DNA of 64,000 nucleotides from Mobula hypostoma. Its lineage: Eukaryota. Location of the stretch: NCBI RefSeq assembly GCF_963921235.1, contig NC_086108.1:8928001-8992000 (forward strand), read 5' to 3'. The first letter of the stretch is position 1. Every line of letters begins with the position of its first letter. Below, one piece after another: positions 5,591-62,995 of the stretch. The notes below the pieces were generated by a model, which did no database searches, had not been told where the DNA came from, and saw nothing but the letters and a program-made list of their open reading frames with translations. The translations under genes were made by a program, and so were the position numbers.

Positions 5591-5669
5591 ATGAAAGAAA
5601 ATTGGAGGGCTATTTGGTAAATTATAAACACAATTCTGATGGAGGGGCTTGGCCTGAAATGCTGACTTG

Positions 5670-12402: not shown

Positions 12403-12826
12403 TAGTGCTAGATGCTTGGGAAAGAATATACTCTTTTCTGCTTACACGGGGTGGGTGGAGAACAGACTGTGAGGATGTCAGGGCAGAACCACAGCCGAGG
12501 GTCAAATAAGCCAGGTCTTCAGCTTTGGAGAAAGGAGAGATTGAAGAATTCAAGGCGCAGCAGTGAACTAACAGTGGATATCGGAGAACTCATCAGGTTG
12601 GGCAGCATCTGAGGAGGGAGAGGGAATTGACATTTCAGGGTGATGGCCCTTCCTTAGAGAGTTCTGACAGAGGCGGGAACACCAGAGAGCGTAGATGCTG
12701 GAACATGGGACAACACACAAAGCCAAGGAAGAATTCAGTGGGTCAAGATGGTCGACATTTTGGGTCAGTCCTGACAAAATAGCTTGACCTTTGACCCGAG
12801 ATGTCGACTGTCCATTTCCCTCATAG

Positions 12827-12827
<1 letters not shown>

Positions 12828-12870
<43 letters not shown>
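12828..12870. repeat. (GT)n microsatellite
   Basis: About 21 perfect GT units. Confidence 0.95.
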
Positions 12871-16160: not shown

Positions 16161-16912
16161 CTGCTCTATAGAGGCGGACAAAATCATAGAAATTAAGAAG
16201 CTGCTAGGGTCAGTAATTAGAGGGCATGGACTGAGTTGGAGGAAGGAGACTATCACATTCATCCTGTGGGTTGCTGGCATCTGGGGCAGACTGGGATGGA
16301 CAGTGGACACAGACTCAACAGGAACTTTCAGAGGCAAGGTGGCGATCACTGGGGGAAGAGACTGGAGATGCAACAAAAACAATTGGCCGGAAGAACTCGG
16401 GGGTGGGGGGGGTCAAGCAGCAACTGTGGGAGAAAAGGAATTGTCAATGTTTCCAGTCAAAACCTTTGCCCAAAATGACATTCCCTGTCCTACCAAAGAT
16501 GCTGCTCGAGCTACTGAGATCTCCCAGCAAGTCGCTTGTTGCTGGGAGAAGGAGTGGGGAGAGGGCCAGGTGGATGTACTGGGATGAAATCATCTCCACC
16601 ACCATTGAACCTTTACCCAGACCTCAGCAATAATCTGTATAGCGGAGTTGAGGCTGTCTGTCACCCTTCCCCAGCACCAACATCCCACTGCTGCTTGAAG
16701 GGAAGTCGGTGTGGAATGTGCAAAGAATGTGTTCGAAAGGGCAGTAGAGAAATGCCAAAATGGGCGCAATAGGTTATGAACCTGTGGGCAAAGAGCAGGG
16801 GCTCTGGGACAAATTTGACACTAATGGACCAGCACAAGCACGATGGCCCAAATGGCCTCAGTGTTCCATGTACGATTTGATGTTGCTGTGAATTGTCTGC
16901 AGACATTTCACG

Positions 16913-19719: not shown

Positions 19720-20260
19720 TGAGCATTCTAACTGATGGCATCACTGTCTGGTACGGGGGAGCGGGGCAGGGCACAGGATCGGAAAAAGCTGCTGCAGCAA
19801 GTTGTAAACTCAGTCAGCTCCATCATGGGCCCCAGCATCGAGGACACCTTCAAAAGCTGAAGCCTCAAAAGGGCGGTATCCATCGCTGAGGACCCCCATC
19901 ACCCAGGACATGCCCCCTTCTCACTGTTACCATCAGGGGGGAAGTACAGGAGCCTGAAGGCACACACGCAATGATTCAGGAACAGCTTCTTCCCCTCCGC
20001 CATCTGATTTCTGAATGGACACTGAACCCATGAACACAACCTTGTCAACGTAAACGTGAGGAATTCTGCAGATGCTGGAAATTCAAGCAACACACATCAA
20101 AGTTGCTGGTGAACGCAGCAGGCCAGGCAGCATCTCTAGGAAGAGGTACAGTCAACTGTAACACTATCTTGTATTGTTTTCCTTTTTCTCTCCTCTCTTT
20201 TTGCACTAATTCACTTAATTTTTATATATACTTCTTACTGTAATTTATAGTTTTATTTAT
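19720..20260 (+). mobile_element. Rex1/Babar 3' fragment interrupted by a Penelope-end-derived insert at ~20046-20159
   Basis: Encodes SILTDGITVWYG. The insert is nearly identical to 34612-34720. Confidence 0.75.
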
Positions 20261-20857: not shown

Positions 20858-21632
20858 TGACAGTGTGACCTTCCCTCAGTACCACTCCTCCCACAGTGTG
20901 ACCCTCCCTCAGTACCACCCCTCCCACAGTGTGACCCTCCCTCACTGCCACCCCTCCCACAGTGTGACCCTCACTATCACCCTCCCAAAGTGTGACTCTC
21001 CCCCAGTCCCGCCCCTCCCACAGTGTGATCCTCCCTCACTACCACCCCTCCCACAGTGTGACCCTCCCTCAGTACCACCCCTCCCACAGTGTGTCCCTCC
21101 CTCACTACCACCCCTCCCACAGTGTGTCCCTCCCTCACTACCACCCCTCCCACAGTGTGACCCTCCCTCAGTAACACCCCTCCCACAGTGTGACTCTCCT
21201 TCAGTACCTCCCCTCCCACAGTGTGACCCTCTCTCACTACCACCCCCCCACAGTGTGACCCTCTCTCAGTACCACCCCTCCCACAGTATGACCCTCCCTC
21301 AGCACCACCCCTCCCACAGTGTGACCCTCCCTCAGTACCACCCCTCCCACAGTATGACCCTCCCTCAGCACCACCCCTCCCACAGTGTGACCCTCCCTCA
21401 GTACCACCCCTCCCACAGTATGACCCTCCCTCAGCACCACCCCTCCCACAGTGTGACCCTCCCTCAGTACCACCCCTCCCACAGTATGACCCTCCCTCAG
21501 TACCACCCCTCCCACAGTGTGACTCTCCCTCAGAACAACCCCTCCCACAGTGTGACTCTCCCTCAGTACTGTCCCTCCCACAGTATGACCCTCCCTCACT
21601 GCCACCCCTCCCACAGTGTGACTCTCCCTCAG
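20858..21632. repeat. 33-bp minisatellite, about 23 copies
   Basis: Unit cacagtgtgaccctccctcagtaccacccctcc, which produces the spurious [13 protein letters not shown]s. Confidence 0.95.
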
Positions 21633-23743: not shown

Positions 23744-24022
23744 GAGCCTCAGGTCCACACCACCAGGTTCAGGAACAGTTATTACCCCACAACCATCAGG
23801 CTCCTGAACCAGTGTGGATAACTTCACTCACCACAATGAGCCTCAGGTCCCACACCACCAGGTTCAGGAACAGTTATTACCCCACAACCATCAGGCTCCT
23901 GAACCAGTGTGGATAACTTCACTCACCACAATGAGCCTCAGGTCCCACACCACCAGGTTCAGGAACAGTTATTACCCCACAACCATCAGGCTCCTGAACC
24001 AGTGTGGATAACTTCACTCACC
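23744..24022 (+). repeat. 95-bp tandem repeat x3 inside a Rex1/Babar 3' end
   Basis: Unit gagcctcaggtcccacaccaccaggttcaggaacagttattaccccacaaccatcaggctcctgaaccagtgtggataacttcactcaccacaat starts at 23744, 23838 and 23933. Confidence 0.92.
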
Positions 24023-24939
24023 TCAATACTGAACTGATTCCACAACCTACAGATTCACTTTCAAGGACTCCACAACTCTTGTTCTCAATATTATTTTTTT
24101 ATATCACTTGAACTATTTATCTCCTGTGGTGTAGCGGTGTCCAAGGAGAGGTAGCACCTCTGGTGAAGGATCTAGTCATGTCCATTCTGGGCAGTTCACT
24201 CACCTTCAGTCCCCACCAGACACTCATCTCTTACCTGTGGCCCCAAGTAGCTGTTCTCATGTGACAATGGCCACATCCCGGTACACTGCTACGACAGGCG
24301 GGCTAAACCAGGTGAGGGTAGACGGTGGGCCCCATACCATGGTGAGATAGGGACATGCCTGACCCAGCGTTTGAAGCCAGCTCCGGCAGACTGGGTGGAT
24401 GAGATCGACAGTGTGATCCGACGGCCAGGAAGGTGGTACTGTAATGCTCCGTGGAGAGCGAAGGGCACGACAAGACACAGAAGACGTCACCATCATCCAC
24501 TGCAACCAGGGAAGACCCCAGTTTGTGACGCTTGTATGTACAACTGGACCCGGGCGTCTGAGGTCAAGAGAGTGGAACTGCCCCAATACAACAGTTTTTC
24601 CACTTTCAAAACTCCACCGCACAGGTTTTTTGTCATCGTCAGACACGGTGGACAACCAACATAAATCTCCTTTTGCACATCAGTTGTTTGCCCAAAACTT
24701 ATTGTTGAAATTTTTTATAAATTCCATTGACTTTCCTTATTTTCCTGTAAATGCCTGCAAGAAAATGAATCTCAGGGTGGCACACGGTGACATAAATGTA
24801 CTTAGATAATAAATCTACTTTGATTTGGATTTTGGTTGATCTGTAGGATTCTCACCTCTGCATGGCTATCATCACAATCTCTGTGTTCACTCAAACAGAG
24901 ATTGGTATTAAAATTGGGTTCTTATCGTCACGAAGAGTC

Positions 24940-27099: not shown

Positions 27100-30000
27100 A
27101 ACTTGGTACATCAAAGCATACAGTGAAACCCGTCGTTTTGAGTCAAATCTAATCAGTGGGAATTGTGCCGGGCAGCCCACAGGTGTTGCACATTTCTGTT
27201 GCCAACGTAGCACGGCAACAACTCACTAATCCTAACCCTTACAGCACGCCAATAACTCACTAATCCTAACCCTTACAGCACGCCAATAACTCACTAATCC
27301 TAACCCTTACAGCATGCCAACAACTCATTAATCCTAACCCTTACAGCACGCCAACTCCTCACTAATCCTAACCCTTACAGCACGCCAACAACTCACTAAT
27401 CCTAATGCTTACAGCACACCAACTCCTCACTAATCCTAACCCTTACAGCACGCCAACAACTCACTAATCCTAACCCTTACAGCACGCCAACAACTCACTA
27501 ATCCTAACCCTTACAGCACACCAACAACTCACTAATCCTAACCCTTACAGCACGCCAACAACTCACTAATCCTAACCCTTACAGAACGCCAACAACTCAC
27601 TAATCCTAACCCTTACAGCATGCCAATAAATCACTAATCCTAACCCTTACAGCACGCCAACAACTCATTAATCCTAACCCTTACAGCACGCCAACTCCTC
27701 ACTAATCCTAACCCTTACAGCACGCCAACAACTCACTAATCCTAATGCTTACAGCACACCAACTCCTCACTAATCCTAACCCTTACAGCACGCCAACAAC
27801 TCACTAATCCTAACCCTTACAGCACGCCAACAACTCACTAATCCTAACCCTTACAGCACACCAACAACTCACTAATCCTAACCCTTACAGCACGCCAACA
27901 ACTCACTAATCCTAACCCTTACAGAACGCCAACAACTCACTAATCCTAACCCTTACAGCATGCCAATAAATCACTAATCCTAACCCTTACAGCACGCCAA
28001 CAACTCATTAATCCTAACCCTTACAGCACGCCAACTCCTCACTAATCCTAACCCTTACAGCACACCAACAACTCACTAATCCTAACCCTTACAGCACGCC
28101 AATTCACTAATCCTAACCCTTACAGCACACCAACAACTCACTAATCCTAACCCTTACAGCATGCCAACTCACTAATCCTAACCCTTACAGCACGCCAAGA
28201 ACTCATTAATCCTAACCCTTACAGCACGCCAAGAACTCATTAATCCTAACCCTTACGGCACGCCAACAACTCACTAATCCTAACCCTTACAGCACGCCAA
28301 CAACTCACTAATCCTAACCCTTACAACACGCCAACAACTCACTAATCCTAACCCTTGCAGCACACCAACAACTCATTAATCCTAACTCTTACAGCACACC
28401 AACAACTCACTAATCCTAACCCTTACAGCACACCAACAACTCATTAATCCTAACTCTTACAGCACACCAACAACTCATTAATCCTAACCCTTACAGCACA
28501 CCAACAACTCACTAATCCTAACCCTTACAGCACACCAACAACTCACTAATCCTAACCCTCACAGCACGCCAACAACTCACTAATCCTAACCCTTACAGCA
28601 CGCCAACAATTCACTAATCCTAACCCTTACAGCATGCCAACAATTCACTAATCCTAACCGTTGCAGCACACCAACAACTCACTAATCCTAACCCTTACGG
28701 CACACCAACAACTCACTAATCCTAACCCTTACGGCACACCAACAACTCACTAATCCTAACCCTTACGGCACACCAACAACTCACTAATCCTAACCCTTAC
28801 GGCACACCAACAACTCACTAATCCTAACCCTTACAGCACGCCAATATCTCACTAATCCTAACCCTTACAGCACGCCAACTCACTAATCCTAACCCTTACA
28901 ACACGCCAAGAACTCATTAATCCTAACCCTTAAGGCATGCCAACAACTCACTAATCCTAACCCTTACAGCACGCCAACAACTCACTAATCCTAACCCTTA
29001 CAGCACGCCAACAACTCACTAATCCTAACCCTTACAGCACGCCAACTCACTAATCCTAACCCTTACAGCACGCCAACTCACTAATCCTAACCCTTACAGC
29101 ACACCAACAACTCACTAATCCTAACCCTTACAGCACGCCAATTCACTAATCCTAACCCTTACAGCACGCCAACTCACTAATCCTAACCCTTACAGCACGC
29201 CAAGAACTCATTAATCCTAACCCTTACGGCATGCCAACAACTCATTAATCCTAACCCTTACAGCACGCCAACAACTCACTAATCCTAACCCTTACAGCAC
29301 GCCAACTCACTAATCCTAACCCTTACAGCACGCCAACTCACTAATCCTAACCCTTACAGCACACCAACTCCTCACTAATCCTAACCCTTACAGCATGCCA
29401 ACAACTCATTAATCCTAACCCTTACAGCATGCCAACTCACTAATCCTAACCCTTACAGCACACCAACAACTCACTAATCCTAACCATTACAGCACGCCAA
29501 CAATTCACTAATCCTAACCGTTGCAGCACACCAACAACTCACTAATCCTAACCCTTACGGCACACCAACAACTCACTAATCCTAACCCTTACGGCACACC
29601 AACAACTCACTAATCCTAACCCTTACGGCACACCAACAACTCACTAATCCTAACCCTTACGGCACACCAACAACTCACTAATCCTAACCCTTATGGCACA
29701 CCAACAACTCACTAATCCTAACCCTTATGGCACACCAACAACTCACTAATCCTAACCCTTACAGCATGCCAATATCTCACTAATCCTAACCCTTCCAGCA
29801 CACCAACAACTCACTAATCCTAACCCTTACAGCACACCAACAACTCACTAATCCTAACCCTTACAGCACGCCAATTCACTAATCTTAACCCTTACAGCAC
29901 GCCAACTCACTAATCCTAACCCTTACAGCACGCCAAGAACTCATTAATCCTAACCCTTACAGCATGCCAACAACTCACTAATTCTAACCCTTACGACACA

Positions 30001-33000
30001 CCAACAACTCACTAATCCTAACCCTTACAGCACGCCAACAATTCACTAATTCTAACCCTTACAGCACACCAACAACTCACTAATCCTAACCCCTACAGCA
30101 CACCAACAACTCATTAATCCTAACCCTTACAGCACACCAACAACTCACTAATCCTAACCCTTACAGCACACCAACAACTCATTAATCCTAACCCTTACAG
30201 CACACCAACAACTCACTAATCCTAACCCTTACGGCACACCAACAACTCACTAATCCTAACCCTTACGGCACACCAACAACTCACTAATCCTAACACTTAC
30301 GGCACACCAACAACTCACTAATCCTAACCCTTACGGCACACCAACAACTCACTAATCCTAACCCTTACGGCACACCAACAACTCACTAATCCTAACCCTT
30401 ACAGCACACCAACAACTCATTAATCCTAACCCTTACAGCACACCAACAACTCACTAATCCTAACCCTTACAGCACGCCAACAATTCACTAATCCTAACCG
30501 TTGCAGCACACCAACAACTCACTAATCCTAACCCTTACGGCACACCAACAACTCACTAATCCTAACCCTTACGGCACACCAACAACTCACTAATCCTAAC
30601 ACTTACGGCACACCAACAACTCACTAATCCTAACCCTTACAGCATGCCAACAACTCATTAATCCTAACCCTTACAGCACACCAACAACTCACTAATCCTA
30701 ACCCTTACAGCACGCCAACAATTCACTAATCCTAACCGTTGCAGCACACCAACAACTCACTAATCCTAACCCTTACGGCACACCAACAACTCACTAATCC
30801 TAACCCTTACGGCACACCAACAACTCACTAATCCTAACACTTACGGCACACCAACAACTCACTAATCCTAACCCTTACGGCACACCAACAACTCACTAAT
30901 CCTAACCCTTATGGCACACCAACAACTCACTAATCCTAACCCTTACGGCACACCAACAACTCACTAATCCTAACCCTTACGGCACGCCAATATCTCACTA
31001 ATCCTAACCCTTCCAGCACACCAACAACTCACTAATCCTAACCCTTACAGCACACCAACAACTCACTAATCCTAACCCTTACAGCACGCCAATTCACTAA
31101 TCCTAACCCTTACAGCACGCCAACTCACTAATCCTAACCCTTACAGCACGCCAAGAACTCATTAATCCTAACCCTTACGGCATGCCAACAACTCACTAAT
31201 CCTAACCCTTACAGCACGCCAACAACTCACTAATCCTAACCCTTACAGCACGCCAACTCACTAATCCTAACCCTTACAGCACACCAACTCCTCACTAATC
31301 CTAACCCTTACAGCATGCCAACAACTCATTAATCCTAACCCTTACAGCATGCCATCAACTCACTAATTCTAACCCTTACGACACACCAACAACTCACTAA
31401 TCCTAACCCTTACAGCACGCCAACAACTCACTAATCCTAACCCTTACAGCACGCCAATAACTCACTAATCCTAACCCTTACAGCACGCCAATTCACTAAT
31501 CCTAACCCTTACAGCACGCCAACTCACTAATCCTAACCCTTACAGCATGCCAAGAACTCATTAATCCTAACCCTTACGGCATGCCAACAACTCACTAATC
31601 CTAACCCTTACAGCACGCCAACAACTCACTAATCCTAACCCTTACAGCACGCCAACTCACTAATCCTAACCCTTACAGCACACCAACTCCTCACTAATCC
31701 TAACCCTTACAGCATGCCAACAACTCATTAATCCTAACCCTTACAGCATGCCAACAACTCACTAATTCTAACCCTTACGACACACCAACAACTCACTAAT
31801 CCTAACCCTTACAGCACGCCAACAACTCACTAATCCTAACCCTTACAGCACGCCAATTCACTAATCCTAACCCTTACAGCACGCCAACTCACTAATCCTA
31901 ACCCTTACAGCACGCCAAGAACTCATTAATCCTAACCCTTACAGCACGCCAAGAACTCATTAATCCTAACCCTTACGGCACGCCAACAACTCACTAATCC
32001 TAACCCTTACAGCACGCCAACTCACTAATCCTAACCCTTACAGCACACCAACTCCTCACTAATCCTAACCCTTACAGCATGCCAACAACTCACTAATACT
32101 AACCCTTCCAACACGCCAACAACTCACTAATCCTAACCCTTGCAGCACACCAACAACTCACTAATCCTAACCCTTACAGCACACCAACAACTCATTAATC
32201 CTAACCCTTACAGCACACCAACAACTCATTAATCCTAACCCTTACAGCACACCAACAACTCACTAATCCTAACCCTTACAGCACACCAACAACTCACTAA
32301 TCCTAACCCTTACAGCACGCCAACAACTCACTAATCCTAACTCTTACAGCACGCCAACAATTCACTAATCCTAATCTTTACAACACGCCAACAATTCACT
32401 AATCCTAACCGTTGCAGCACACCAACAACTCACTAATCCTAACCCTTACGGCACACCAACAACTCACTAATCCTAACCCTTACAGCACGCCAATTCACTA
32501 ATCCTAACCCTTACAGCACGCCAACTCACTAATCCTAACCCTTACAGCACGCCAAGAACTCATTAATCCTAACCCTTACAGCACGCCAAGAACTCATTAA
32601 TCCTAACCCTTACGGCACGCCAACAACTCACTAATCCTAACCCTTACAGCACACCAACAACTCACTAATCCTAACCCTTATGGCACACCAACAACTCACT
32701 AATCCTAACCCTTACAGCATGCCAACAACTCATTAATCCTAACCCTTACAGCACGCCAACAACTCACTAATCCTAACCCTTACAACATGCCAACAACTCA
32801 CTAATCCTAACCCTTGCAGCACACCAACAACTCACTAATCCTAACCCTTACAGCACACCAACAACTCATTAATCCTAACCCTTACAGCACACCAACAACT
32901 CATTAATCCTAACCCTTACAGCACACCAACAACTCACTAATCCTAACCCTTACAGCACACCAACAACTCACTAATCCTAACCCTTACAGCACGCCAACAA

Positions 33001-33490
33001 CTCACTAATCCTAACTCTTACAGCACGCCAACAATTCACTAATCCTAACCTTTACAACACGCCAACAATTCACTAATCCTAACCGTTGCAGCACACCAAC
33101 AACTCACTAATCCTAACCCTTACGGCACACCAACAACTCACTAATCCTAACCCTTATGGCACACCAACAACTCACTAATCCTAACCCTTACAGCACACCA
33201 ACAACTCACTAATCCTAACCCTTATGGCACACCAACAACTCACTAATCCTAACCCTTCCAGCACACCAACAACTCATTAATCCTAACCCTTACAGCACGC
33301 CAATATCTCACTAATCTTAACCCTTATGGCTTTGGGTTGTGGGAGGACACCAGAGCACCTGGAGCAAATTTACACAATCACGGGGAGAACGTACAAACTC
33401 CTTACAGACAGCGGTGGGAGTTGAACCTCGATCGGAGGTCGCTGACTCTGAAAAGTGTTGTGCCTCCTGCCACACGACCGTGCCATCCCA
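27100..33490 (-). mobile_element. V-SINE split by the 34-bp satellite (5' half 33310-33490, 3' half 27100-27230)
   Basis: The right flank is the reverse tRNA head plus V-domain (tgtgggaggacaccagagcacctggag...gttgaacctcgatc). The left flank is the SINE 3' part matching 17330-17410. Confidence 0.8.
27217..33328. repeat. 34-bp satellite, ~6.1 kb, about 180 units, with 31-bp variants
   Basis: Unit aacaactcactaatcctaacccttacagcacgcc in head-to-tail arrangement with no unique spacers. Confidence 0.97.
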
Positions 33491-34340: not shown

Positions 34341-34617
34341 ATGATCATGGGTTCGTGCTCCACCATGAGGCCACACACTGCCTTCCCAACCTTGTTCTCG
34401 ACTCTGCCAAATTTCCCCAAAGACAGCAAAAGCGCCAGATCACTCAGTCGACCCAAAAGCCCATTATCAAAATGTAAATTATGGGCTACAATTGCACACA
34501 GATTCATAGTAGGATTATATTTAAAAGAAGGAGAAGAAGTAGTAGCTTTGTAAACTGTCTGCATGACGTCACCATAAGCCGCCTTGGTCACTGGCTCCAT
34601 TGCCCTTTTGACAATGT

Positions 34618-34801
34618 AAACATGAGGAATTCTGCAGATGCTGGAAATTCAAGCAACACACATCAAAGTCGCTGGTGAATGCAGCAGGCCAGGCAGCATC
34701 TCTAGGAAGAGGTACAGTTGACGTTTCGGGCTGAGCCCCTTCGTCCTGACGAAGCGTCTTGGCCCGAAACGTCGACTGTACCTCTTCCTAGAGATGCTGC
34801 C
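34618..34801. mobile_element. Foldback Penelope-terminus-derived mini-element flanked by a 17-bp direct repeat
   Basis: tgcccttttgacaatgt occurs at 34601-34617 and 34802-34818. Inverted arms lie at ~34691-34745 and ~34748-34802. Confidence 0.8.
34743..34776 (+). ncRNA. Minimal type-I hammerhead ribozyme motif (Penelope type)
   Basis: gtc-CTGACGA-a-gcgtcttggccc-GAAA-cgtc-gac. It has the CUGANGA and GAAA core, a palindromic ACGU stem III, a GUC cleavage triplet and a 3-bp stem I. Stem II carries one mismatch. Confidence 0.6.
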
Positions 34802-35149
34802 TGCCCTTTTGACAATGTCTGTTCTGATGAGATGAAACACTTCTGTTGAATTTCTCTCTTGTGCACCATTGAAGAACATCACAGAACTGAAGTTCCCCAT
34901 CCTGGGCACCAACCCTTCCCACACCGTTGCTGACCTCTTCTCAAAGTGCAGGAAACAGAACCGAACAAATGGCCATAAACTTTTATGTTCCAAGTGAGAA
35001 GATAAACCGACAATGGCTGAGCTTCGGATCACAGTGTGCGTAAATGATTGGTCGGCAGGTCAGTGTCACACCGCCTGTGGGATGTTTCCTGTGTCCTGTG
35101 GACCGGTGTGAAACACTTCTTATGAGGAGGAAGATCTCACTGAAACCAA

Positions 35150-35849: not shown

Positions 35850-38350
35850 ATGTAATATCTGGGCACTTTTATAAATATATTGTTCGATTAAATAATTCAT
35901 TACGGGTTCCATGTAAAAATACGTAAATTGCATACGTCTTCAAGCTACCATTTCATACGTGTGCACCTCTCTTAAAGTAAAAACAATGTTAGACACATTA
36001 TTCCCAGCTCTGTGTATTTGATTAGTTTTATGTTTTGAAGTTACAAAACATAACAGTGGCAACCAGGAAGTTTTTAACAAACCCAAAATGACTACCTACA
36101 TGTTGAAACACAGCAAGACTTTCAAATTAAAAAGTACAGCAAGAATGGTTGAGTTAGAAAAACAGTGCAATATGCTTTCTTCACAAAGGGACAGACATAA
36201 TCCAATTTTTTTAAAAAGGCAGAAAACAGACAAATTCATGGATTCATAAACAGTATTGGATGATAATACTCATAGATCTTAAAAAAAAGCAGAAATGTCT
36301 CACTACATCAGAAAGATAGTTGTGTTCAAATGCACAAAAAGATTCCAGTAGCCAAGAACAATAGGTTAGTTAGGATCTATGGTGTCTTTAAGGTCACCAT
36401 CAACACAGTAATGAAGGTAGATCAATGCCCTTTGCCCAGGAGAGAGGATATCTTGGTAAATCCTTCTGGAGAGAAACACTTCAGCTAGGTGGACTTAGCT
36501 GAGGCCTGCCTAATGATGGAGATGGAAGAAGAATCCAAAATATTTCTCATCATGAATACTCAGAAAGGGTTTTATCGCTATAATAGGCTTATTTCTGGAG
36601 TAGCATCTGTACCTGCACTCTGGCAGAAAGCTATGGAACAGGTGCTGCGAGGCACTCAGAGTTACCCAGATGACATTATTGTTACCGGTAAAGATGAGTA
36701 CAAACATCTCCAAAATCTCAAGACAGTGTTACAAAAAATAAATTGTGGGCTTACAGCACGACGCAACAAGTGTGAATTCTTTAAACCAAGCATCACTTAC
36801 TGTGGTCACACCATTGACACACAAGGTGCTGAGAAAATTCAAGCGGTGGTGGATGCCCCAAGGCCAAAGGACATATCACAGTTGCAATTCTTTTTAGGAT
36901 TTTTCAATTACAGCCTGGCTACTGTGTTCCAGCCCTTGAACTCATTACTACAGATTGCGACAATGGACACAGCAGTGTGAGGTGGCTTTCCAAAAGAAAA
37001 GGAAATGGGATGTTAGACACTGTACTCACACATTCTGATTTATATCGGCCAGTGAGGCTTGCAGATGAAGCCCCACCTTATGGTATAGGTGCAGCCATGT
37101 CACATGTTATGAGTGATGGAAGTGAATGCCTCACACTATTTGCATAATATTCCCTTACTGCTGCGGAGAAGAATCACACACAGAATGACAGAGAGGCCTT
37201 GAGTCTGGTTTGGGGTGTAAAATATTTCAACCAGTACCTGTATGGGAGAGTTTACCCTTATTACTGATCGTCGGCCTCTGGTGTTCATTTTAATCCACAG
37301 AAGGCTGTTCCACTAACAGCAGCAGCACAAATGTAGCGATGGGGCCTGTTTCTTGGAGGACACAACTACAAGATCGAATTCAAAAGGACAACTAATCATG
37401 GAAATGCTGATGGATTACCCTGTTTACCCTGAGAAAAGGAAATACCTGAAAAATTTACGAAAATGGACATTCCTCATGATGTATTCTCCCTAATGTGAAT
37501 CCAAAGTCTCAGTATTACAGCAGTGGTGATCTAAGGGGAAAACAGAAAAGAGCCCACACTCTCTCAGGTCTACGTGGCCACCCAAAATGGCTGGAATATG
37601 CCCCAGAAACTTCTGTTTCCCATTTTTACCAGCACTAGGGTGAACCTGCCCTTGATCAGGGCTGTTGTACCATCCAAACTTAGAGCTAAAGTGTTGGAGG
37701 AGCAACATGCTGGTCACCCAGGTGTGGTCAAAATGAAGGTGTTGGCTTGAAGCTTTGTCTTGTCACCTGGGATAGACCAGCAGATCGAGCAGCTTGCCAC
37801 AAACTGTTCAGGATGCCAACACGCCCTGAAGAACAGTGACCAGAGCTGTCAGAACCACCTCCTACAGACCCAGAGTCAACTTCCTTCAACCATCACGGAG
37901 GAGGCTCCCGAACACGGGACTGCTACACGACTACAAGTCCCTCCCGCCAAGCAGAGTGGCCACAACCCCTCCGCCCCCCATCAGGAAAGCCGTTATCCCA
38001 GAAAGGTAAGAAATCCTCCACAGCGATTAAATCTTTGGGACTGAGTGGGACAATTTAAAATTTACTATGTTGTGGATATGTGTGTGTGAGTGTGTGTGTG
38101 TGTGTGTGTCTGACTACATTCATAAGTGGCAATGCTTCTATATTGAGATGGAGTTTATAGCTAAGCAGGGAGTGTAGTATATTTAATATTTCAGTGATAT
38201 TTGAGTAATATTATAAGAATACTGTTTGAGTAAGCATTCTTTTTTGTTGACATAATTTGTTATGGGTTATATGTAAAAGTATGTAAATTGCCTACGTCAT
38301 TATGCCACGTCATATGTGAGCATTTCGCTAAAGTAAAAACAAAACTAAGA
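35850..38350 (+). mobile_element. Decayed, internally deleted Gypsy LTR retrotransposon
   Basis: Two similar LTR segments (~35850-36055 and ~38170-38350) share tatgtaaaa.tacgtaaattgc.tacgtc...taaagtaaaaacaa. A PBS-like tggcaaccagg follows ...aaca. Coding remnants are RT (DLAEACL, INTQKGFYRYNRL, YPDDIIVTG), RNase H (DEAPPYGIGA.MSH) and the integrase H-H-C-C region (HAGHPGVVKMK...CSGCQ). Confidence 0.85.
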
Positions 38351-38635: not shown

Positions 38636-41600
38636 TTTTTAAATCTTTTTATTGAATAAGTATACCAAAAGGTAAGCCATATAAACATTACTACAATGTT
38701 AAAATATAATAAAATTACAGAAGGTATCAATACCAAAAAAAAATACTACAAACAATGTAATTTAAACATAAGAAACCAAGATAACATAATAGTATACTAA
38801 ATTTTATATATATATCAATGGAAAAAAAAAGAAAAAAAAAACCCCAAAAAAAAACCCACCGTGCAACTAACTAAAAGCAAAGCAAAGCAATGGGCTAACT
38901 TGAAACCAAACAGAGTTAAACTTAAAATCACGTCCTCAATCCCGACCTCCATTAAAAACAGTGAAAAAAAAACAAGAAGGGTATATATTACATTAAGTGA
39001 AAATATTGAATAAAAGATCCCCAAATCTGTTCAAATTTAAATGAAGAATCATAAAGGTTACTTCTAATTTTCTCCAGATTCAAACATAATATCGTCTGAG
39101 AGAACCAAAAAAAGGTAGTTGGAGCATTAAGCTCTTTCCAATGTTGTAAAATACATCTTTTCGCCATTAAAGTAAGAAATGTAATCATTCTACGGGCTGA
39201 AGGGGAAAGATTACTAGAAATTTTAGGTAGTCCAAAGATAGCAGTAATAGGGTAAGGAGAGATATCTATATTTAATACCTTAGAAATAATATTAAAAATG
39301 TCTCTCCAAAAAGTTTCCAAAGTAGGGCAAGACCAAAACATATGAGTTAAAGAGGCTATCTGCCCCGAACATCTATCAGAAAAAGGATTAATATGCAAGT
39401 AAAAATGCGCTAACTTATCTTTGGACATATGTGCTCTATGAACAACTTTAAATTGAATTAGGGAATGTTTAGCGCAAATAGAGGAAGTATTAACTAATTG
39501 TAAAATCTGCCCCCAATCATCCACAGAAATGGTAAGCCCCAATTCCTGTTCCCAATCTACCCTAATCTTATCAAATGGAGCTTTCCTAAGTTTCATAATA
39601 ATATTATAAATCATAGCCGATGCACCTTTCTGACATGGATTAAGGTTAATTATCGAATCTAAAATATATGTAGGAGGAAGCATTGGAAAGGAAGAAAGTA
39701 CAGTACTTAGGAAATTTCTAACTTGCAAATATCTAAAAAAATGTATTCTTGATAAATTATATTTATTAGATAGTTGTTCAAAAGACATAAGGGAACCATC
39801 TAAAAATAAATCCAAAAACTGTAAAATACCCTTAGTCTTCCAAGTTTGAAAAGCGCGATCCGTAAAAGAGGGAGGAAAAAATATGTTACCTAAAATAGGA
39901 ATCGCTAACCCGAATTGATTAAGATCAAAAAATTTTCTGAATTGAAACCAAATACGCAAAGCATATTTAACTATCGGGTTAGACACCTGCTTAAGGCGTT
40001 TTGAATCAAAAGGGAGAGAGGAACCTAAAATAGAGCCAAGTGTATAGCCCTGAACAGATTGTAGTTCCAATGCTACCCATTTAGGAATAGATAGTATATC
40101 CTGGTCAAGTAACCAAAATTTCATATGTCGAATATTAATTGCCCAATAATAGAATCTAAAGTTAGGTAATGCTAAACCTCCATCTCTCTTAGCTTTCTGT
40201 AAATGTATTTTACCCAGTCTCGGATTTTTATTCTGCCAAATAAATGAAGAAATTTTAGAGTCAACTTTATCAAAGAAAGATTTTGGAACAAAAATTGGTA
40301 ATGCCTGAAACACATATAAAAATTTTGGCAAAAAAAAATCTTAACTGCATTAATACAACCAATCAAAGTTAAATATAAAGGAAACCATTTAGATGAAAGT
40401 TGAGTAATATGGTCTATTAATGGTAGAAAGTTAATCTTAAATAAATCTTTATATTTACAAGTAATTTTAATCCCAAGATAAGAAAAATAGTTATCAATCA
40501 ATTTAAATGGAAATTTATAATATAAGGGAAGATGTTTATTAATCGGAAAGAGTTCACTCTTACTAAGATTTAATTTATAACCTGAAAAAAAACCAAATTG
40601 TGCTAATAACTCTAAAACAGCAGGAATGGATTTCTCAGGATTAGAAATATATAAAAGTAAATCATCAGCATAGAGTGATAATTTATGGGATTTTAATCCC
40701 CGAGTTATCCCAGTAATATTTGATGATTCTCGAATGGCAATTGCAAGAGGTTCTAATGCAATATCAAATAATAGGGGACTAAGAGGACAGCCTTGTCGAG
40801 TACCTCGAAAAAGAGGAAAAAAAGGTGAGTTTAAAGAGTTAGTACGGACCGAGGCTACAGGGGAATGATATAACAGTTTAATCCAGGATATAAATTTCAA
40901 GCTAAAGTTAAACATTTCAAGCACCTTAAATAAATAAGGCCATTCTACTCTATCAAAAGCTTTCTCGGTGTGTAAAGAAATAACACACTCAGGAACATTT
41001 TGTGAGGGAGTATAAACGATATTTAACAATGTACGAATATTATAAAAAGAGTAACGACCTTTAATAAAACCCGTTTGGTCTTCCGAAATAATAGAAGGAA
41101 GTACTTTTTCTAGTCTATTTGCTAATAACTTAGAAAAAACTTTAGAATCAACATTTAATAGAGATATTGGTCTATAAGATGCACATTGAGCAGGGTCTTT
41201 ATCCTTCTTTAATATTAAAGAAATTGACGCTCTATTAAAAGATTCAGGAAGTTTACCAAGTTTCAGAGAAGCCTCAAAAACCCTACAGAGCCAAGGGATC
41301 AATAAAGAAGCAAAACATTTATAAAATTCAACGGTAAACCCATCCGGGCCAGGAGCTTTCCCCAAATTCATAGAAAGAATAACATTCTTAATCTCATCCA
41401 TAGTAATGGAAGTATCTAATATAGAAGACATATCCTGTGAAATCTGAGGGAAGTCTAAATTATCTAAAAAATCATTCATATGTTTAGAATCTCGAGGAGA
41501 CTCTGATTGATATAAAGAAGAATAAAAATCACAAAAGGTTTGATTAATCCCCACATGATCCAGTATCAATCGATCATTTTGATTATAAATCTGATTGATT

Positions 41601-43356
41601 TGAGATTTAACATAATTAGATTTCAATTGATTAGCCAGCAGCTTGCCAATTTTGTCACTGTGAACATAAAATTCACTTCTTGTTTTCTTTAATTGGTTTA
41701 CAATCGAGGACGAGAGTAGTAAACTGTGTTCCATTTGAAGTTCAGTTCTTTGTTTGTATAACTCCTCAGAAGGAGCCATAACATATTTCTTATCAATTTC
41801 TTTAATCTTGTCCACAATTACCATCTCCTCCTGCTTCTGCTTCTTCCTCAAAGCAGCAGAAGACGAGATAATCTGACCACGAATATAGGCTTTAAAAGTG
41901 TCCCAAAGAATGTTAACCGAAATATCCTCTGTATGGTTAATTGTAAAAAAAAGCTCAATCTGTTCATTCATAAAGTTAACAAAGTCCGAGTCCTGAAGCA
42001 ACAGCGAATTAAAACGCCATTGTCTATTATTTTGTATATTGGCCATAATTTTAATAGAAAGCTTAAGTGGAGCATGATCCGAAATGGTTATAGAATCATA
42101 ATCACATTTAATCACTGAAGAAATAAGACGAGAATCAATAAAAAAAATAATCAATTCTTGAATAGGAATGATGAACATGTGAAAAGAAAGAAAAATCTTT
42201 TTCCTGAGGATGCAGAAAACGCCAAATGTCCGTCGACCCAGAATCAGAAAGGAAAGAGTTAATCAAAGTTGCAGATTTATTAGGTAAAGTCCGTAAAGGA
42301 GCCGAACGGTCCAAAGCTGAAGACAAACAGGTATTAAGATCTCCGCCCCAGATCAATGAAAACTCGTTCAAATTCGGAAACTGATTAAACAATGATTTAT
42401 AAAATTCCGGACAGTCCATATTAGGAGCATAAACATTAACCAAAACTACTTTTTTATTAAATAGTAAACCACTAACCAATAAAAATCTACCATTCGGATC
42501 AGAAAAAATATCCTGTTGTATAAAAGTAACTGAGGAATCTATAAAAATAGAGACGCCTCGAATCTTAGCATTGGAGTTTGAATGAAATTGTTGGCCCTTC
42601 CAGAATTTAAAAAAACGTAGTCTGTCCCCCCTCCGTACATGGGTCTCTTGTAAAAATAAAATTTGTGCTTTAAGTCTCCGGAACACTTTAAAAACTTTTT
42701 TCCTTTTAATAGGATGATTAAGACCGTTAGTATTCCAGGAGACAAAATTAATAATAGACTCCATAAATCCTAAAGTCAACCCACAGCGAGGAGGATTGAC
42801 GATAGGCTCGACCCACGAACCCGGAGAGGAAACAGAACATACAAAAGATACCGGGAAAAAGGACGCAACCAGTACTTCAATAATGTATATAGCCCGAAGA
42901 GAAAAAAACTAAAACGTGAAGCCCCTCCCACCACCCCCCACCCCAAGACCGCAAGGCAAAATCTAAAGCAGACCCGCCCGAAAGAAGCAAGCGCTAAAAC
43001 TACCCCCATGACTTCCGGTATACGCTCCCTAAAAAAAAGGTATAAATATGAAAAAGATCAGCTAATTGTAAAACAGTAAAAAAGTAGAAAAAAAGGTAAC
43101 TCAATTAAAATACACACACAACAGAACAAAAGCCAGAAAATATATATTAAAAAAAAACCACAATAAACCCCAAACCCATGAATAAACAAAACAACAAGAA
43201 AAAATAAGATTATTACCATAAACTAGTTATAAAAAGCAAAACCAAATAAAATTTTTTTAAAAACTACAAAATTTAAGGCCACACAGGAAATACGTAAAAT
43301 GACAATAAGTAACCACCCAGAATCCCCTGGGAAAAGAAAGAAATGACGCAGTTAAA
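38636..43356 (-). mobile_element. 5'-truncated L1-clade LINE (ORF2 plus upstream spacer) with a 16-bp TSD
   Basis: TSD ctctgtacctacttcc at 38620-38635 and 43357-43372. AATAAA and a short A tail at the 3' end. AT-rich composition. ORF1 is absent. Confidence 0.93.
38988..42764 (-). pseudogene. L1 ORF2 (APE endonuclease, reverse transcriptase, Cys-rich C-terminus) with two frameshifts
   Basis: Endonuclease motifs SWNTNGL, LQETH, NVYAPN, GGDLN, SRIDYF and SDHAP. RT motifs KAPGPDGF, YRPISLLN, KAFDRVEW, GTRQGCPLSPLLF and YADD. C-terminal HMFWSCP. The reading frame is split over three ORFs. Confidence 0.9.
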
Positions 43357-47500: not shown

Positions 47501-47526
47501 ATTTTCAACTTTAGGAGAGAGAGCTC

Positions 47527-49690
47527 CAACAGTGTGAGCCTCTCTCATATGCCCCTCCCACAGTGTGACCCTCCCTCGGTACCACCCCCTCCCACAGTGA
47601 GACCCTCCCTCAGTACCACCCCTCCCACAGTGTGACCCTCCCTCAGTACCGCCCCTCCCACAGTGTGACCCTCCCTCAGTACCACCCCTCCCACAGTGAG
47701 ACCCTCCCTCAGTACCGACCCCTCCCACAGTGTGACCCTCCCTCAGTACCGCCCCTCCCACAGTGTGACCCTCCCTCAGTACCACCCCTCCCATGGTGTG
47801 AATCTCCCTCAGTACCGCCCCCCCCACAGTGTGACCCTTCCCACAGCGTGACCCTCCCTCAGTACCGCCCCTTCCATGGTGTGAATCTCCCTCAGTACCA
47901 CCCTTCCCACAGAGTGACCCTCCCTCGGTACCACCCCTCCCACAGTGAGACCCTCCCTCAGTACCGACCCCTCCCACGGTGTGACTTTCCCTCAATACCA
48001 CCCCACAGTGTGACCCTCCCTCAGTACTGCCCCCCCACAGTGTGACCCTCCCTCGGTACCACCCCTCCCACAGTGTGACCCTCCCTCAGTACCGCCCCTC
48101 CCACAGTGTGACCCTCCCTCAGTACTGCCCCCCCCACAGTGTGACCCTCCCTCGGTACCACCCCTCCCACAGTGTGACCCTCCCTCAGTACCGCCCCTCC
48201 CACAGTGTGAATCTCCCTCAGTACCACCCCTCCCACAGTGTGACCCTCCCTCAGTACCACCCCTCCCACAGTGTGACCCTCCCTCAGTACCGACCCCTCC
48301 CACAGTGTGACTTTCCCTCAATATCACCCCCACAGTGTGACCCTCCCTCAGTACCGCCCCTCCCACAGTGTGAATCTCCCTCAGTACCGCCCCTCCCACA
48401 GTGTGACCCTCCCTCAGTACCGCCCCTCCCACAGTGTGAATCTCCCTCAGTACCGCCCCTCCCACAGTGTGACCCTCCCTCAGTACCACCCTTCCCACAG
48501 TGTGACCCTCCCTCAGTACCACCCCCTCCCACAGTGAGACCCTCCCTCAGTACCACCCCTCCCACGGTGTGACCCTCCCTCAGTACCACCCCTCCCACAG
48601 TGAGACCCTCCCTCAGTACCGACCCCTCCCACAGTGTGACCCTCCCTCAGTACCGCCCCTCCCACAGTGTGACCCTCCCTCAGTACCGCCCATCCCATGG
48701 TGTGAATCTCCCTCAGTACCGCCCCCCCCACAGTGTGACCCTTCCCACAGTGTGACCCTTCCCACAGTGTGACCCTCCCTCAGTACCGCCCCTCCCACAG
48801 TGTGACCCTCCCTCAGTACCACCCTTCCCACAGTGTGACCCTCCCTCAGTACCGCCCCTCCCACAGTGTGACCCTCCCTCAGTACCGCCCCTCCCACAGT
48901 GTGAATCTCCCTCAGTACCGCCCCTCCCACAGTGTGACCCTCCCTCAGTACCGCCCCTCCCACAGTGTGAATCTCCCTCAGTACCGCCCCTCCCACAGTG
49001 TGACCCTCCCTCAGTACCGCCCCTCCCACAGTGTGAATCTCCCTCAGTACCGCCCCTCCCACAGTGTGACCCTCCCTCAGTACCACCCTTCCCACAGTGT
49101 GACCCTCCCTCAGTACCACCCCCTCCCACAGTGAGACCCTCCCTCAGTACCACCCCTCCCACGGTGTGACCCTCCCTCGGTACCACCCCTCCCACAGTGT
49201 GACCCTCCCCCAGTACTGCCCCTCCCACGGTGTGAATCTCCCTCAGTACCACCCCTCCCACAGTGTGACCCTCCCTCAGTACCGACCCCTCCCACAGTGT
49301 GACTTTCCCTCAATATCACCCCCACAGTGTGACCCTCCCTCAGTACCGCCCCTCCCACAGTGTGAATCTCCCTCAGTACCGCCCCTCCCACAGTGTGACC
49401 CTCCCTCAGTACCACCCCTCCCACAGTGTGAATCTCCCTCAGTACCACCCTTCCCACAGTGTGACCCTCCCTCAGTACCACCCCTCCCACAGTGTGACCC
49501 TCCCACAGTGTGACCTTCCCACAGTGTGACCCTCCCTCAGTAACGCCCCTCCCATGGTGTGACCCTCCCTCAGTACTGCCCCTCCCACAGTGTGACCCTC
49601 CCTCAGTAACACCCCTCCCATGGTGTGAATCTCCCTCAGTACCGCCCCCCCCCACAGTGTGACCCTTCCCACAGTGTGACCCTCCCTCAG
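47527..49690. repeat. 33-bp minisatellite, ~2.15 kb, about 65 copies, starting ~43 nt downstream of the exon 4 donor
   Basis: Same unit as 20858-21632. Confidence 0.95.
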
Positions 49691-50145: not shown

Positions 50146-51239
50146 CTGGAACGCAAGGAGGAATGTTTCAGAGGGAGCCGTGCACAGAGCGGTGTCTGAC
50201 CTGGAGTTCAGAGTCCGAGCAAACCTCGAGAGCTCCCAGAACCCGACACGTCGGGTGGATGTTCTGGGATGCAGGTTGGATAGGAAAGGCTTCCTGGAGT
50301 AGGTCTTAGCCCAAGACGTTGACTGTTTATTCCCCTCCATAGATGCTGCCTGACCTGCTGAGTTCCTCCACCAATTTTTGTGTGTTGCTAAGGTTTAGAA
50401 AATTAGGAACCACATGCTTTATTGAAAGTGGCAGTTTTGATAAGTTCTTGATTAGTCAGGGTTACGGGGGGAATGTAGGAGAACGGGGCTGAGAGGGATA
50501 ACAAATCAGTCATGATGGAATGGCAGAGCACACTCAATGGGCTGAATGGCCTGATTCGGCTTCTATGTCTTATTTATATTTGCATTTGCACAGTTTGTTG
50601 TCTTCTGCACTCTGGTTGATCTTTCACTGATCCTGTTACAGTTGCTATTCTATAGATTTACTGAGTATGCCCACAGGAAAATGAATCTCGGTTGTATATG
50701 GTGACATATATGTACTCTGATAATAAAATCTACTTTGAACTGTAAACTGTTTGTGATCTTATGTTATTGGCCAGCACGGTAATGTTATTCGGAAATGGTG
50801 CACAGAAGATTCTGAAGAGTCCAGAGTCACACACGCAAAATGCTGGAGGAACTCAACAGGCCAGGCAGCACCCATGGAGAGGAATAAACAGTTTTTGATT
50901 TGAGATGAGACCCAACATCGTTCTCCACCCTATAGCCCTGTTTGTGTGTGTTGCTCTGGATTTCCAGCATCCGTAGAACCTCTTGTGTCTCATTTCCCAA
51001 CAACCTGTCCAGCATCCTAATCTGCACACATTCCATTCACCACCACCCACCCACCGCTCCCCCAAGATTCAACCCTTCACCTACCCACCAGGGACATTCT
51101 ACAGTAGCCAACCCACAAGTCTCTGAGATGTGGGAAGAAAACTGGATCACCTGGGGTGGTGGGGGGGGGAGGGAAACCAATGTGATCACAGGCAGAACAT
51201 GCAAACTCCACACAGACAGCATTGAGGTCAGGATTCGTG

Positions 51240-52188: not shown

Positions 52189-52560
52189 TTGTGGTGAGTG
52201 AAGTTATCCACACTGGTCCAGGAGCCTGATGGTTGTGGGGTAATAACTGTTCCTGAACCTGGTGGTGTGGGACCTGAGGCTCATTGTGGTGAGTGAAGTT
52301 ATCCACACTGGTCCAGGAGCCTGATGGTTGTGGGGTAATAACTGTTCCTGAACCTGGTGGTGTGGGACCTGAGGCTCATTGTGGTGAGTGAAGTTATCCA
52401 CACTGGTTCAGGAGCCTGATGGTTGTGGGGTAATAACTGTTCCTGAACCTGGTGGTGTGGGACCTGAAGCTCATTGTGGTGAGTGAAGTTATCCACACTG
52501 GTTCAGGAGCCTGATGGTTGTGGGGTGATAACTGTTCCTGAACCTGGTGGTGTGGGACCT
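52189..52560 (-). repeat. 95-bp tandem repeat x~4 inside a Rex1/Babar 3' end, inverted relative to 23744-24022
   Basis: Reverse complement of the same unit with the same unit junction. The ORF-track peptides at 23814 (+) and 52204/52299 (-) are almost identical. Confidence 0.92.
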
Positions 52561-57924: not shown

Positions 57925-58490
57925 ATATCCGTCACAAAGAGCGGGATCTCCCGGGAGCCACGCATTTCAACCTACATCGCATTCCCATCCCCACACGTCA
58001 GTCCATGGTGTCTGCTACCGTCAAGATGAGGCCGCACTCAGGTTGGAAGAGCAACATCTTATATTCCGTCTGGGTAGTCTCCAACCTGATGGCATGAACA
58101 TCGATTTCTCTAACTTCCAGTAAGCTCCCTCCTCTCCTTCACCATTCCCCATTCATTTCCCTCTCTCATCTTACCTCCTTACCCGACCATCACCTCCCTC
58201 TGCTGCTCCTCCCCCTTCCCTTTCTTCCATGGTCTTCTGCCCTCTCCTATCAGATTCCCCCTTCTCCAGCCCTGTATCTCTTTCACCAGTCAACTTCCCA
58301 GCTCTTTACTTCACCCCTGCCCCTCCCGGTTTCACCTATCACCTGCCACCTTCCTCTCCTCCCCTCCCTCCACCTTCTTACTCTGACTTCTCAGGCTTGA
58401 AGAAGGGTCTCGGCCTGAAACATCGACTGTACTCTTTCCCACAGACGCTGCCTGGCCTGCTGAGTTCCTCCAGCGTTGTGCGTGCAACTC
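57925..58490 (+). mobile_element. Penelope-like 3' end: GIY-YIG C-terminus, pyrimidine-rich UTR, degenerate hammerhead
   Basis: 58025-58123 encodes [32 protein letters not shown]. The sequence ttgaagaagggtctcggcctgaaacatcgactgtac at 58397-58432 is homologous to the ribozyme motif at 34746. Confidence 0.75.
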
Positions 58491-61454: not shown

Positions 61455-62995
61455 CAGGTGTCCCACGCTTTTCGAACATTCGCTTTACAAAACCTCACTG
61501 TTATGAAAGACCTACATTAGTACCCTATTTTCGCTTTCAGAAGGTGTTTTCACTGTTACGAAAGAAAAATTCAGCACGTGATAAAAAAATCAGCGCGCGA
61601 TAAAAGCTGCTCTCCCCCAGATTTGGAACTGCTTTGCTTTAACACGTGCCTGTGAGCAGCCGTTTGCAAGATGAGTTCTATGGTATCGGAAAAGCCTGAA
61701 AGAGCTCGTAAGGGTGTTACACTTATGGTAAAACTAGACATAATTAAGCGTTTTGATCGTGGTGAACTAAGTAAGGACAACGTGAGTTTGACTTGTGGAG
61801 GCTGACGAACATGATGTTGAAGAGGTTTTGGCATCCCATCTCCAAGAACTGACAGATGAAGAGCTGATGCAAATGGAAGAAAAAAAGGATAACAATCAAA
61901 ACCGCATGAGTAATGATAAAGTACAACTTTAATTTTGAAAGGGTACGTAGGTTTAGGAGATATTTGCAGGATGGTTTGAGTCCTTATTAAAGAACTGTAT
62001 GATAGAAAAATGTGCGAGGCTCAGCAGTCAAGCAAGCCTTCCACATCAGCCACAGCAGACGACGAACCTCGACCTTCAACATCGAGGCGGGCAGAGATAG
62101 AAGAAGATGAGCTGCCTGCTCTAATGGAAACAGACAACGAGATGACACCCCAGTGTCTCACCACCCCAACAGCCAGGCCACGGACAGATACTGTACTGAT
62201 TCGCGGAGAATGCAAAGGTAGCCGGGAGGCACACAGCACATCTTTAAGAAAAAAGCCGAAATAAACATGCTAATTATTAGGTGCCGCCCGGCACGTGATT
62301 GTCGGCCCAGATCAGAGACGACGCAATCGGAAATCGGCACTGATCTGGGCCGACAATTACGGGCGGCACCTAATTAATTAGCATGTTTGTTTTGGCTTTT
62401 TTCTTAAAGATGTGCTGTGTACCTCCCGGCTACTGCTGGACCCCTGCGTTCTTCAGTGGCCTGGAGGGTGGGGGGCCACTGCACCACCCAAACTCCGACT
62501 CAGTCTAACACACCATCATCAGTGTGCTCTGCCTGAACCAATTCCGGTCAGTGATACTACACTGTACATACATTATTTCTACTTTATATCGGCTGTGTAT
62601 TTTTACGTGTTATTTGGTTTGATTTGGCAGCTTCATAGTTTAAAGGTTACTGGAGAGCGCTTGCGCCGTGTTTTTGCCAACAGCGCTTGCGTGAGATTTT
62701 CTGCCGACGGCGCTTGCGTGAGATTTTCGCTGCGGAGAACAGTTCAGTAATGATTGTGGAAAAGTATTTCTACTTTATATCGGCTGTGTATTTATCATAT
62801 CATTCCTGCTTTTACTATGTGTTACTGTTATTTTATGTGTTATTTGGCATGATTTGGTAGGTTATTTCTGGGTCTGCGAACGCTCACAAATTTTTCCCAT
62901 ATAAATAAATGGTAATTGCTTCTTTGCTTTACGACATTCCGGCTTACGAACCGTTTCATAGCAACGCTCGACCTTCGGATGGCGGGGGAAACCTG
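61455..62995 (+). mobile_element. Non-autonomous Tigger/pogo-like DNA transposon
   Basis: Imperfect TIRs: caggtgtcccacgcttttcgaa on the left and, in reverse complement, caggtttcccccgccatccgaa followed by TA on the right. Transposase remnants are the N-terminal HTH (RKGVTLMVKLDIIKRFDRGE) and the acidic C-terminus (DVEEVLASHLQELTDEELMQME). The DDE domain is deleted. Confidence 0.75.

Follow-up and report, generated by a model that had tools for sequence, protein, structure and literature searches.

A 184-bp hairpin insert with a hammerhead motif in a Mobula hypostoma intron, read as a decayed head-to-head inverted Penelope-like element insertion

Inverted Penelope-like insertions and their hammerheads

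Penelope-like elements (PLEs) typically comprise an inverted pseudo-LTR (pLTR) beside a direct one, with an optional tail, an enclosing target-site duplication (TSD) and palindromes at the junction, as set out in the parts of PMC3846280 that deal with insertion structure. The same inverted-pLTR arrangement is drawn in Fig. 2 of PMC8557442. Very short, 5′-truncated PLE insertions are normal, with a median length of 128 bp in Chlamydomonas according to the relevant section of PMC9977147. In vitro, a PLE protein cuts and extends both strands and begins reverse transcription at internal sites, and an anole PLE inserts without hammerhead activity; the same sections of that work state that the later integration steps are not validated (PMC11167929). 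The pertinent parts of two accounts do not settle the step that generates head-to-head inversions (PMC3846280; PMC11167929), and a literature search on twin priming in PLEs, judged by title, found no paper on PLE mechanism.

The pLTRs of these elements can harbor minimal hammerhead ribozymes. When intact, such motifs show no cleavage as monomers and low cleavage as dimers in the activity data of PMC4209133 that were available. Non-LTR retrozymes, as portrayed in the parts of PMC7229834 and bioRxiv 10.64898/2026.07.22.740005 that concern their organization, instead are head-to-tail tandems with at least two consecutive complete hammerheads.

The segment at positions 34618–34801 of the window (the whole 64,000-nucleotide stretch of Mobula hypostoma contig NC_086108.1 that was analyzed) is very likely one short, decayed PLE insertion in the known head-to-head inverted form. 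It is a new case of an already published class of PLE insertion, ordinary in kind, and a clean record of PLE integration. Like Pen2a_Av (PMC3846280) and the insertions in Fig. 2 of PMC8557442, so far as the structures given there extend, it has head-to-head pLTR pieces that meet in a palindrome or overlap, an extension confined to a single end and an enclosing TSD, and it shares with them strong 5′ truncation and the AT-rich targets of its family. Unlike those insertions, it is far shorter at 184 bp, has no ORF, and the truncation of either piece falls within the pLTR. Its one extension, of 70 nt, exceeds the 30–40 bp tail. The short arm stops ~70 nt short of the terminus, at an internal microhomology, whereas the corresponding end lies one tail length before it in the published insertions covered by these accounts, and the TSD is 17 nt compared to the 8–10 bp given in the relevant part of PMC3846280. 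The lengths of the extension and of the TSD weigh against the PLE reading. No published account of this ray PLE family was found in the literature on ray and shark PLE hammerheads, inverted-pLTR non-autonomous elements and PLE hairpin siRNAs; the tables of bioRxiv 10.64898/2026.07.22.740005, which have one chondrichthyan among their entries, may contain a related family.

The insert, its flanks and the empty site

The insert is located in an intron of an EHD-family gene that is transcribed from the minus strand:

18040–49732, minus strand: 31.7-kb GT-AG host intron of the EHD-family gene, from exon translations and splice sites
~50150–49733, 18039–17875, and 14492 to the stop at 13956, minus strand: exons of the EHD-family gene, with canonical splice sites

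The last exon of the gene specifies EH and DUF5600 domains. The same intron contains an L1/Tx1-like non-LTR ORF2 in three long broken frames (38988–42908, minus strand) with an endonuclease-like start and an RVT_1 match at E 1e-36. An open frame at 36489–36980 is, by eye, presumably akin to a Gypsy-type LTR retrotransposon RT region. Positions 27209–33326 are taken up by a minisatellite with a 34-bp unit that is repeated 182 times and includes telomere-like CCTAACCCT motifs, and arrays of one 33-bp minisatellite are present at 20860–21632 and 47524–49675, the second adjoining the donor site of the EHD exon. A triple or quadruple 95-bp repeat occurs at 23744–24027 and, in opposite orientation, at 52189–52560, and an unrelated ~215-bp self-inverted repeat with an arm identity of 85%, possibly MITE-like, is situated at 62218–62433.

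The insert and its immediate borders are made up as follows:

34601–34617, no strand: left TSD copy, 17 nt, whose last 6 nt match the PLE family 3′ tail at five of six positions (microhomology); found once in the empty site of organism C
34618–34745, minus strand: long arm, the 3′ part of a 5′-truncated PLE pLTR, including the tail, up to the family 3′ terminus at 34618
34743–34745, no strand: inversion junction, a 3-nt microhomology (GTC) common to both arms
34743–34803, plus strand: short inverted arm, a pLTR piece running from hammerhead stem I to an internal end
34743–34776, plus strand: minimal type I hammerhead motif, with a cut predicted after C34773
34802–34818, no strand: right TSD copy, 17 nt, from the sequence and the contig alignment

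As the initial annotation described, 184 bp are inserted between two copies of an exact 17-nt direct repeat, and much of the insert forms a near-perfect hairpin with a 2-nt loop. Positions 34690–34745 pair with 34748–34803 through 51 Watson-Crick pairs out of 56, with three G.U pairs and two mismatches. The predicted minimum free energy of the hairpin is −118.6 kcal/mol (z −12.8), and none of 200 shuffled sequences folded equally well. The two arms are pieces of one repeat that face head to head and share GTC at the join, with the inverted 5′ copy meeting the other at a palindromic or overlapping junction. The loop at 34746–34747 belongs to the short arm. The long arm has no ribozyme on its own strand because the truncation falls inside the hammerhead core. 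Microhomology to the target is present at both outer ends, at five of six nucleotides each; at the internal end of the short arm the overlap with the right TSD is exact over 2 nt and reaches five of six when extended. Within 34690–34745 the arms differ at five positions. The insert departs from the family majority at four of these, and the fifth, 34719, is outside the family rows that were listed. An 84-nt X1 contig (record 7, depth 13.5) crosses the fold center ungapped with 11 differences and probably represents a second locus with the same fold center.

Two trivial origins were rejected. A DNA-transposon MITE does not fit as the ends are not inverted repeats and the left 70 nt are an unpaired element tail. 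An assembly artifact is discounted as both outer junctions occur in X1 contigs without differences and the right junction is present also in organism B (X5 record 16, which over 353 letters shows one difference in addition to a 9-nt indel).

The 17-mer is identical at 34601–34617 and 34802–34818. Only two of the close, non-tandem exact 17-mer repeats that were listed are not simple or tandem sequence: this pair and one at 62574/62765. Contigs from four of 23 sequencing runs were aligned to 34345–35130. One contig from organism C (X9 record 29) aligns to 34429–34600 and then to 34802–35130 with two letters between, has one 17-mer and lacks the insert. It shows 26 differences in 501 aligned letters, and organism C is ~5% diverged. 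The empty site is represented by this one contig of one run, in which the two extra letters, of no apparent origin, precede the 17-mer. Because the related organism C has an empty site with one 17-mer, the 17-nt repeat is a true TSD, and the view that the insert arose in a single event with its own duplication is borne out. The simplest reading of the aligned sequences is a single insertion with a 17-nt TSD after the split from organism C and before the split between organisms A and B; a precise deletion in organism C instead is less likely. A single X8 contig, from a run guessed to be RNA, spans 34806–35074, which is outside the insert. The left flank (34399–34570) is part of an older low-copy repeat represented by ~50 contigs per DNA run at 85–90% identity.

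The repeat family and the hammerhead motif

Two further copies in the window bear on the identity of the repeat:

57926–58490, plus strand: related 5′-truncated PLE with a frameshifted GIY-YIG C-terminus, a 3′ UTR and a pLTR with a degenerate hammerhead
20046–20156, minus strand: closest paralog, 105 of 111 nt identical (95%), of the same subfamily and with the same 3′ terminus

The same arm had been said to follow a GIY-YIG C-terminus at 58397–58490. A pLTR copy indeed is present there, but the arms of the insert are only 79–80% identical to 58397–58475, the hammerhead core of the copy is degenerate, and it is situated ~275 nt downstream of the endonuclease ORF stop at 58123–58125. The end of this ORF is matched at 71–76% identity by three Mobula hypostoma and Hypanus sabinus proteins (three of five matches, with 11 candidates). 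These ray proteins possess RT motifs, a CxxxxCxxC zinc-finger-like linker, which was seen by eye in P0001–P0003, and, at the C-terminus, a GIY-YIG domain with an E value of 5e-4 that is below the Pfam cut-off. Because the repeat follows an ORF end that resembles ray RT/GIY-YIG proteins, it is the pLTR of an endonuclease-positive PLE, the PLE origin being as the initial annotation had proposed from the arm; the link is indirect, the 58-kb copy belonging to a related subfamily and not to the same one. The order RT, CxxxxCxxC linker and GIY-YIG in the related ray ORFs is a Neptune/Nematis feature according to the corresponding part of PMC8557442, and the element is probably of the Neptune type.

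A Pfam search with the 65-aa endonuclease fragment of the window returned no families, the query having crossed a frameshift, and NCBIfam produced only a match below cut-off to a group I intron endonuclease. For this exact pLTR subfamily no full-length partner was encountered, and a scan of viral contigs gave no matches. The 119 loci retrieved in a metagenome scan with a 16-nt motif were dismissed as chance matches because none aligned to the insert or to the 58-kb PLE over at least 26 nt.

The family is very abundant, with 58,659 X1 contigs aligned. Loose ends before position 34618 occur in 555, 563, 54 and 203 contigs of X1, X5, X8 and X9, respectively, with additional pile-ups at 34617 and at 34613, where 170 X1 contigs begin. 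The flanks at these three positions are unrelated and A-rich, with an agreement of 0.38–0.45 (0.42 before 34618 in X1). Judged from these alignments, position 34618 is the PLE 3′ terminus common to the family, and the sole insert end that is shared family-wide. The terminus is 122 nt from the start of stem II, near to the 111–118 nt at which the start of reverse transcription is placed for the anole PLE in the pertinent part of PMC11167929. The family combines this fixed 3′ terminus with variable 5′ truncation and an optional tail, and the window copies end mostly near model positions 112–120 or 148–154.

A profile search of the 64-kb window yielded 17 matches at E≤1e-5, 13 of which were its own seeds; the best control match had an E value of 0.78. 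The matches form 13 loci, four of which, including this insert, are head-to-head pairs with different junctions. The other pairs of the same pLTR group, at 12691–12829, 16355–16543 and 50788–50989, are older, and the sense arm of the pair at 12691–12829 also begins at hammerhead stem I. Joints in the contigs vary similarly: among the 15 listed of 146, 13 have their start within the short arm, with 10 different skip lengths between them, and four of the 15 are present in both organisms A and B. On their short side most of the listed joints comprise fewer than 30 letters, and private mutations of this copy shift the aligner and so make the break points uncertain. The joint list omits contigs with exactly this junction, so that loci sharing it fall outside the count.

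The paralog at 20046–20156 does not have the long inverted arm or the hairpin and is bordered by an imperfect 13-nt TSD (20033/20160). A TSD search around six other copies gave a plausible duplication only for this 20-kb copy. A 3–4-nt micro-inversion folded at the stem III palindrome is possible at 20153–20160 in the paralog, and is short enough to have arisen by chance. The solo copies at 5629, 35558, 50293 and 56691, and the loose ends before 34743, seemingly are 5′-truncated at the hammerhead 5′ edge. The flank agreement upstream of 34743 is only 0.37–0.41, and on this value the notion that most copies continue there as a normal pLTR was dropped. The T-rich consensus upstream of stem I terminates like a 3′ splice site, which may denote a truncation hotspot or a spliced template; a 3′ splice site-like sequence at the same kind of position in the D. 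virilis Penelope is described in the relevant portion of PMC4209133.

Shared boundaries among copies had been suggested as a check on the insert. The PLE 3′ terminus at 34618 is shared, but the inversion points differ among copies, and for the fold the refuting condition of differing boundaries largely applies. The initial proposal of a retrozyme-like mini-element that is mobilized as a foldback unit is not supported in view of these variable inversion points, the paralog at 20046–20156 without a long hairpin and the lack of a ribozyme tandem. The paralog and the varied joints also speak against a dedicated non-autonomous foldback family, and the X1 contig over the same fold center speaks for one.

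The letters of a complete minimal type I hammerhead core are placed at 34743–34776 as originally described. Stem I is formed by GUC (34743–34745) and GAC (34774–34776), CUGACGA spans 34746–34752 with an extra A at 34753, G10.1 and C11.1 are at 34754 and 34765, and these are accompanied by GAAA at 34766–34769, a palindromic ACGU and C17 at 34773. The core boxes and the G10.1-C11.1 pair are thus in place, as are the extra nucleotide after A9 and the palindromic 15.2-16.2 pair, which are features of the minimal PLE hammerheads in the pertinent part of PMC4209133. Helix II comprises 4 bp in this family compared to 7–8 bp in the schistosome motifs depicted there. Unlike the hammerheads of that account, this copy has a C.C in helix II, a helix I of 3 bp and a motif sequestered in a 56-bp hairpin (PMC4209133, as far as those motifs are presented).

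Neither a helix II of at least 4 bp nor a helix I of 4–5 bp is able to form in this copy, and the early reservations about the stem II mismatch, the 3-bp stem I and the microhomology at the element ends were right. A private G-to-C change at 34755 breaks stem II through the C.C mismatch. By depth-weighted share in X1, the family letter at 34755 is G (97%) and that at 34760 is C (74%); the probability of stem II is 0.89–0.99 with the family letters and <0.01 for the arm as it stands. When the whole insert is folded, the probabilities of stems I and II round to 0, and forcing the ribozyme fold costs a ΔΔG of 41.4 kcal/mol. The CUGANGA box is absent from the minus strand, which corresponds to the host pre-mRNA. 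Rfam gave no matches at gathering score over the window, and no hammerhead was among the six matches at E≤10; matches to the miRNA models mir-5681 and mir-1237 were set aside as they are far below gathering and reflect the hairpin alone. No tandem ribozyme is present, and TRF finds no array at the insert. The ribozyme in this copy is probably inactive because stem II is broken, stem I is 3 bp, the motif is buried in the hairpin and has no tandem partner, and it is on the strand opposite the host pre-mRNA. Cleavage after C34773, as had been predicted, concerns the right site in principle but is unlikely to take place in this copy, with stem II broken and a deficit of 41 kcal/mol relative to the hairpin. 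The hammerhead would be a passenger inherited from the pLTR.

Integration mechanism and rival explanations

The insert is very likely a heavily 5′-truncated insertion of an abundant, Neptune-like, endonuclease-positive PLE that was fixed in the intron and has decayed since. The GIY-YIG endonuclease would cut both strands 17 nt apart and leave two 3′ overhangs, each of which would anneal to element RNA by ~6 nt of microhomology and prime a cDNA. One cDNA would start at the normal 3′ terminus and the other at an internal site 70 nt inside; both would stop at the hammerhead 5′ edge and be joined through the GTC/GAC microhomology. Given the PLE reading, such twin priming from both overhangs has somewhat better than an even chance of being correct. 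In LINE-1 twin-priming inversions, too, microhomology joins two cDNAs primed at the target, and a TSD encloses them. The pieces of an L1 inversion are adjacent, non-overlapping parts of one RNA, whereas those of the insert overlap and therefore result in a hairpin.

Still within the PLE reading, and for the inversion step alone, self-priming is a possible though rather unlikely route, in which an antisense template would serve for snap-back at the GTC-nn-GAC mini-palindrome and the hairpin would then integrate. The junction reads as a 3-bp palindrome closed by a 2-nt loop, palindromes of this sort are so interpreted for rotifer Penelopes in the Discussion of PMC3846280, and other joints, with skips of 33 and 54, appear to lie close to the palindromes of stems II and III. 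The loop letters nevertheless exclude snap-back by the cDNA primed at the terminus because it would put the antisense loop on the top strand, which leaves a free antisense template as the possible substrate. Moreover, the other cDNA would need a second template to copy the 70 nt that lie past the point where it began, and both outer ends have primer-like microhomology to the target. Routes other than twin priming and self-priming account for the remainder of the probability assigned to the mechanism. At the level of the insert as a whole, a foldback master copy that is transcribed and re-mobilized in trans by PLE protein, generating a small non-autonomous family with this junction, much as initially proposed but without the retrozyme circle, is improbable. 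The X1 contig that covers the same fold center, another contig (X9 record 31) that folds within 7 nt of it, and the recurrence of skip 33 in three of the 15 listed joints (of 146) are in its favor, and the relevant parts of two papers report that pLTRs suffice in cis for trans mobilization (PMC3846280) and that non-autonomous PLEs exist (PMC8557442). However, such recurrence is also expected from fixed microhomologies, and the differences between the arms fit neutral decay of what began as two faithful copies of an ordinary pLTR. Its overlap with host sequence makes the right end look target-determined, and none of the 24 loose-end rows listed, with 1131 further rows beyond these, is at the mirror position 34689.

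The remaining explanations assign the insert to a ribozyme or to the host. As a type I hammerhead in a short, non-coding, pLTR-derived repeat, it resembles a non-LTR retrozyme monomer that spreads via ribozyme-cut circular RNA, and retrozymes derive from pLTRs and have been reported in one chondrichthyan in the part of bioRxiv 10.64898/2026.07.22.740005 concerned with their origin. In contrast to non-LTR retrozymes as delineated there, the insert has no head-to-tail tandem and its motif is minimal rather than canonical: it consists of one head-to-head unit whose only motif is damaged, no tandem array is detected by TRF, and neither insert end is at the cleavage site. The retrozyme reading is largely refuted by this anatomy and is judged extremely improbable. 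Retention of the hairpin for a host function, as intronic dsRNA, a small-RNA precursor or a splicing or editing element of the EHD gene, is also very improbable. The host pre-mRNA strand folds the same hairpin at −119.3 kcal/mol and the insertion is common to organisms A and B, but it is absent from organism C at ~5% divergence, most of its changes are CpG decays that form no compensatory pattern, and the Rfam miRNA matches fall far short of the gathering scores.

The single locus, read as a PLE insertion, matters little: at least several hundred insertions have this terminus, and it is one decayed copy among them. It does reveal how long the TSD is, what microhomology each of the two primers had and where the loop letters come from. 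A minimal hammerhead within a genomic hairpin is an expected by-product of PLE insertion and, as a caution, not evidence for a retrozyme. A broader proposition, which is unlikely at present, is that the inversions of this PLE in these rays are templated by the hammerhead region, with cDNAs stopping at the ribozyme 5′ edge and joining at the stem I/core, stem II or stem III palindromes, such that foldbacks of ~100–200 bp recur and some are self-propagating. If this is true, hundreds of foldbacks together with empty sites in close relatives could discriminate twin target-priming from antisense self-priming. Genomes of rays that have close relatives may constitute a large natural data set on PLE inversion.
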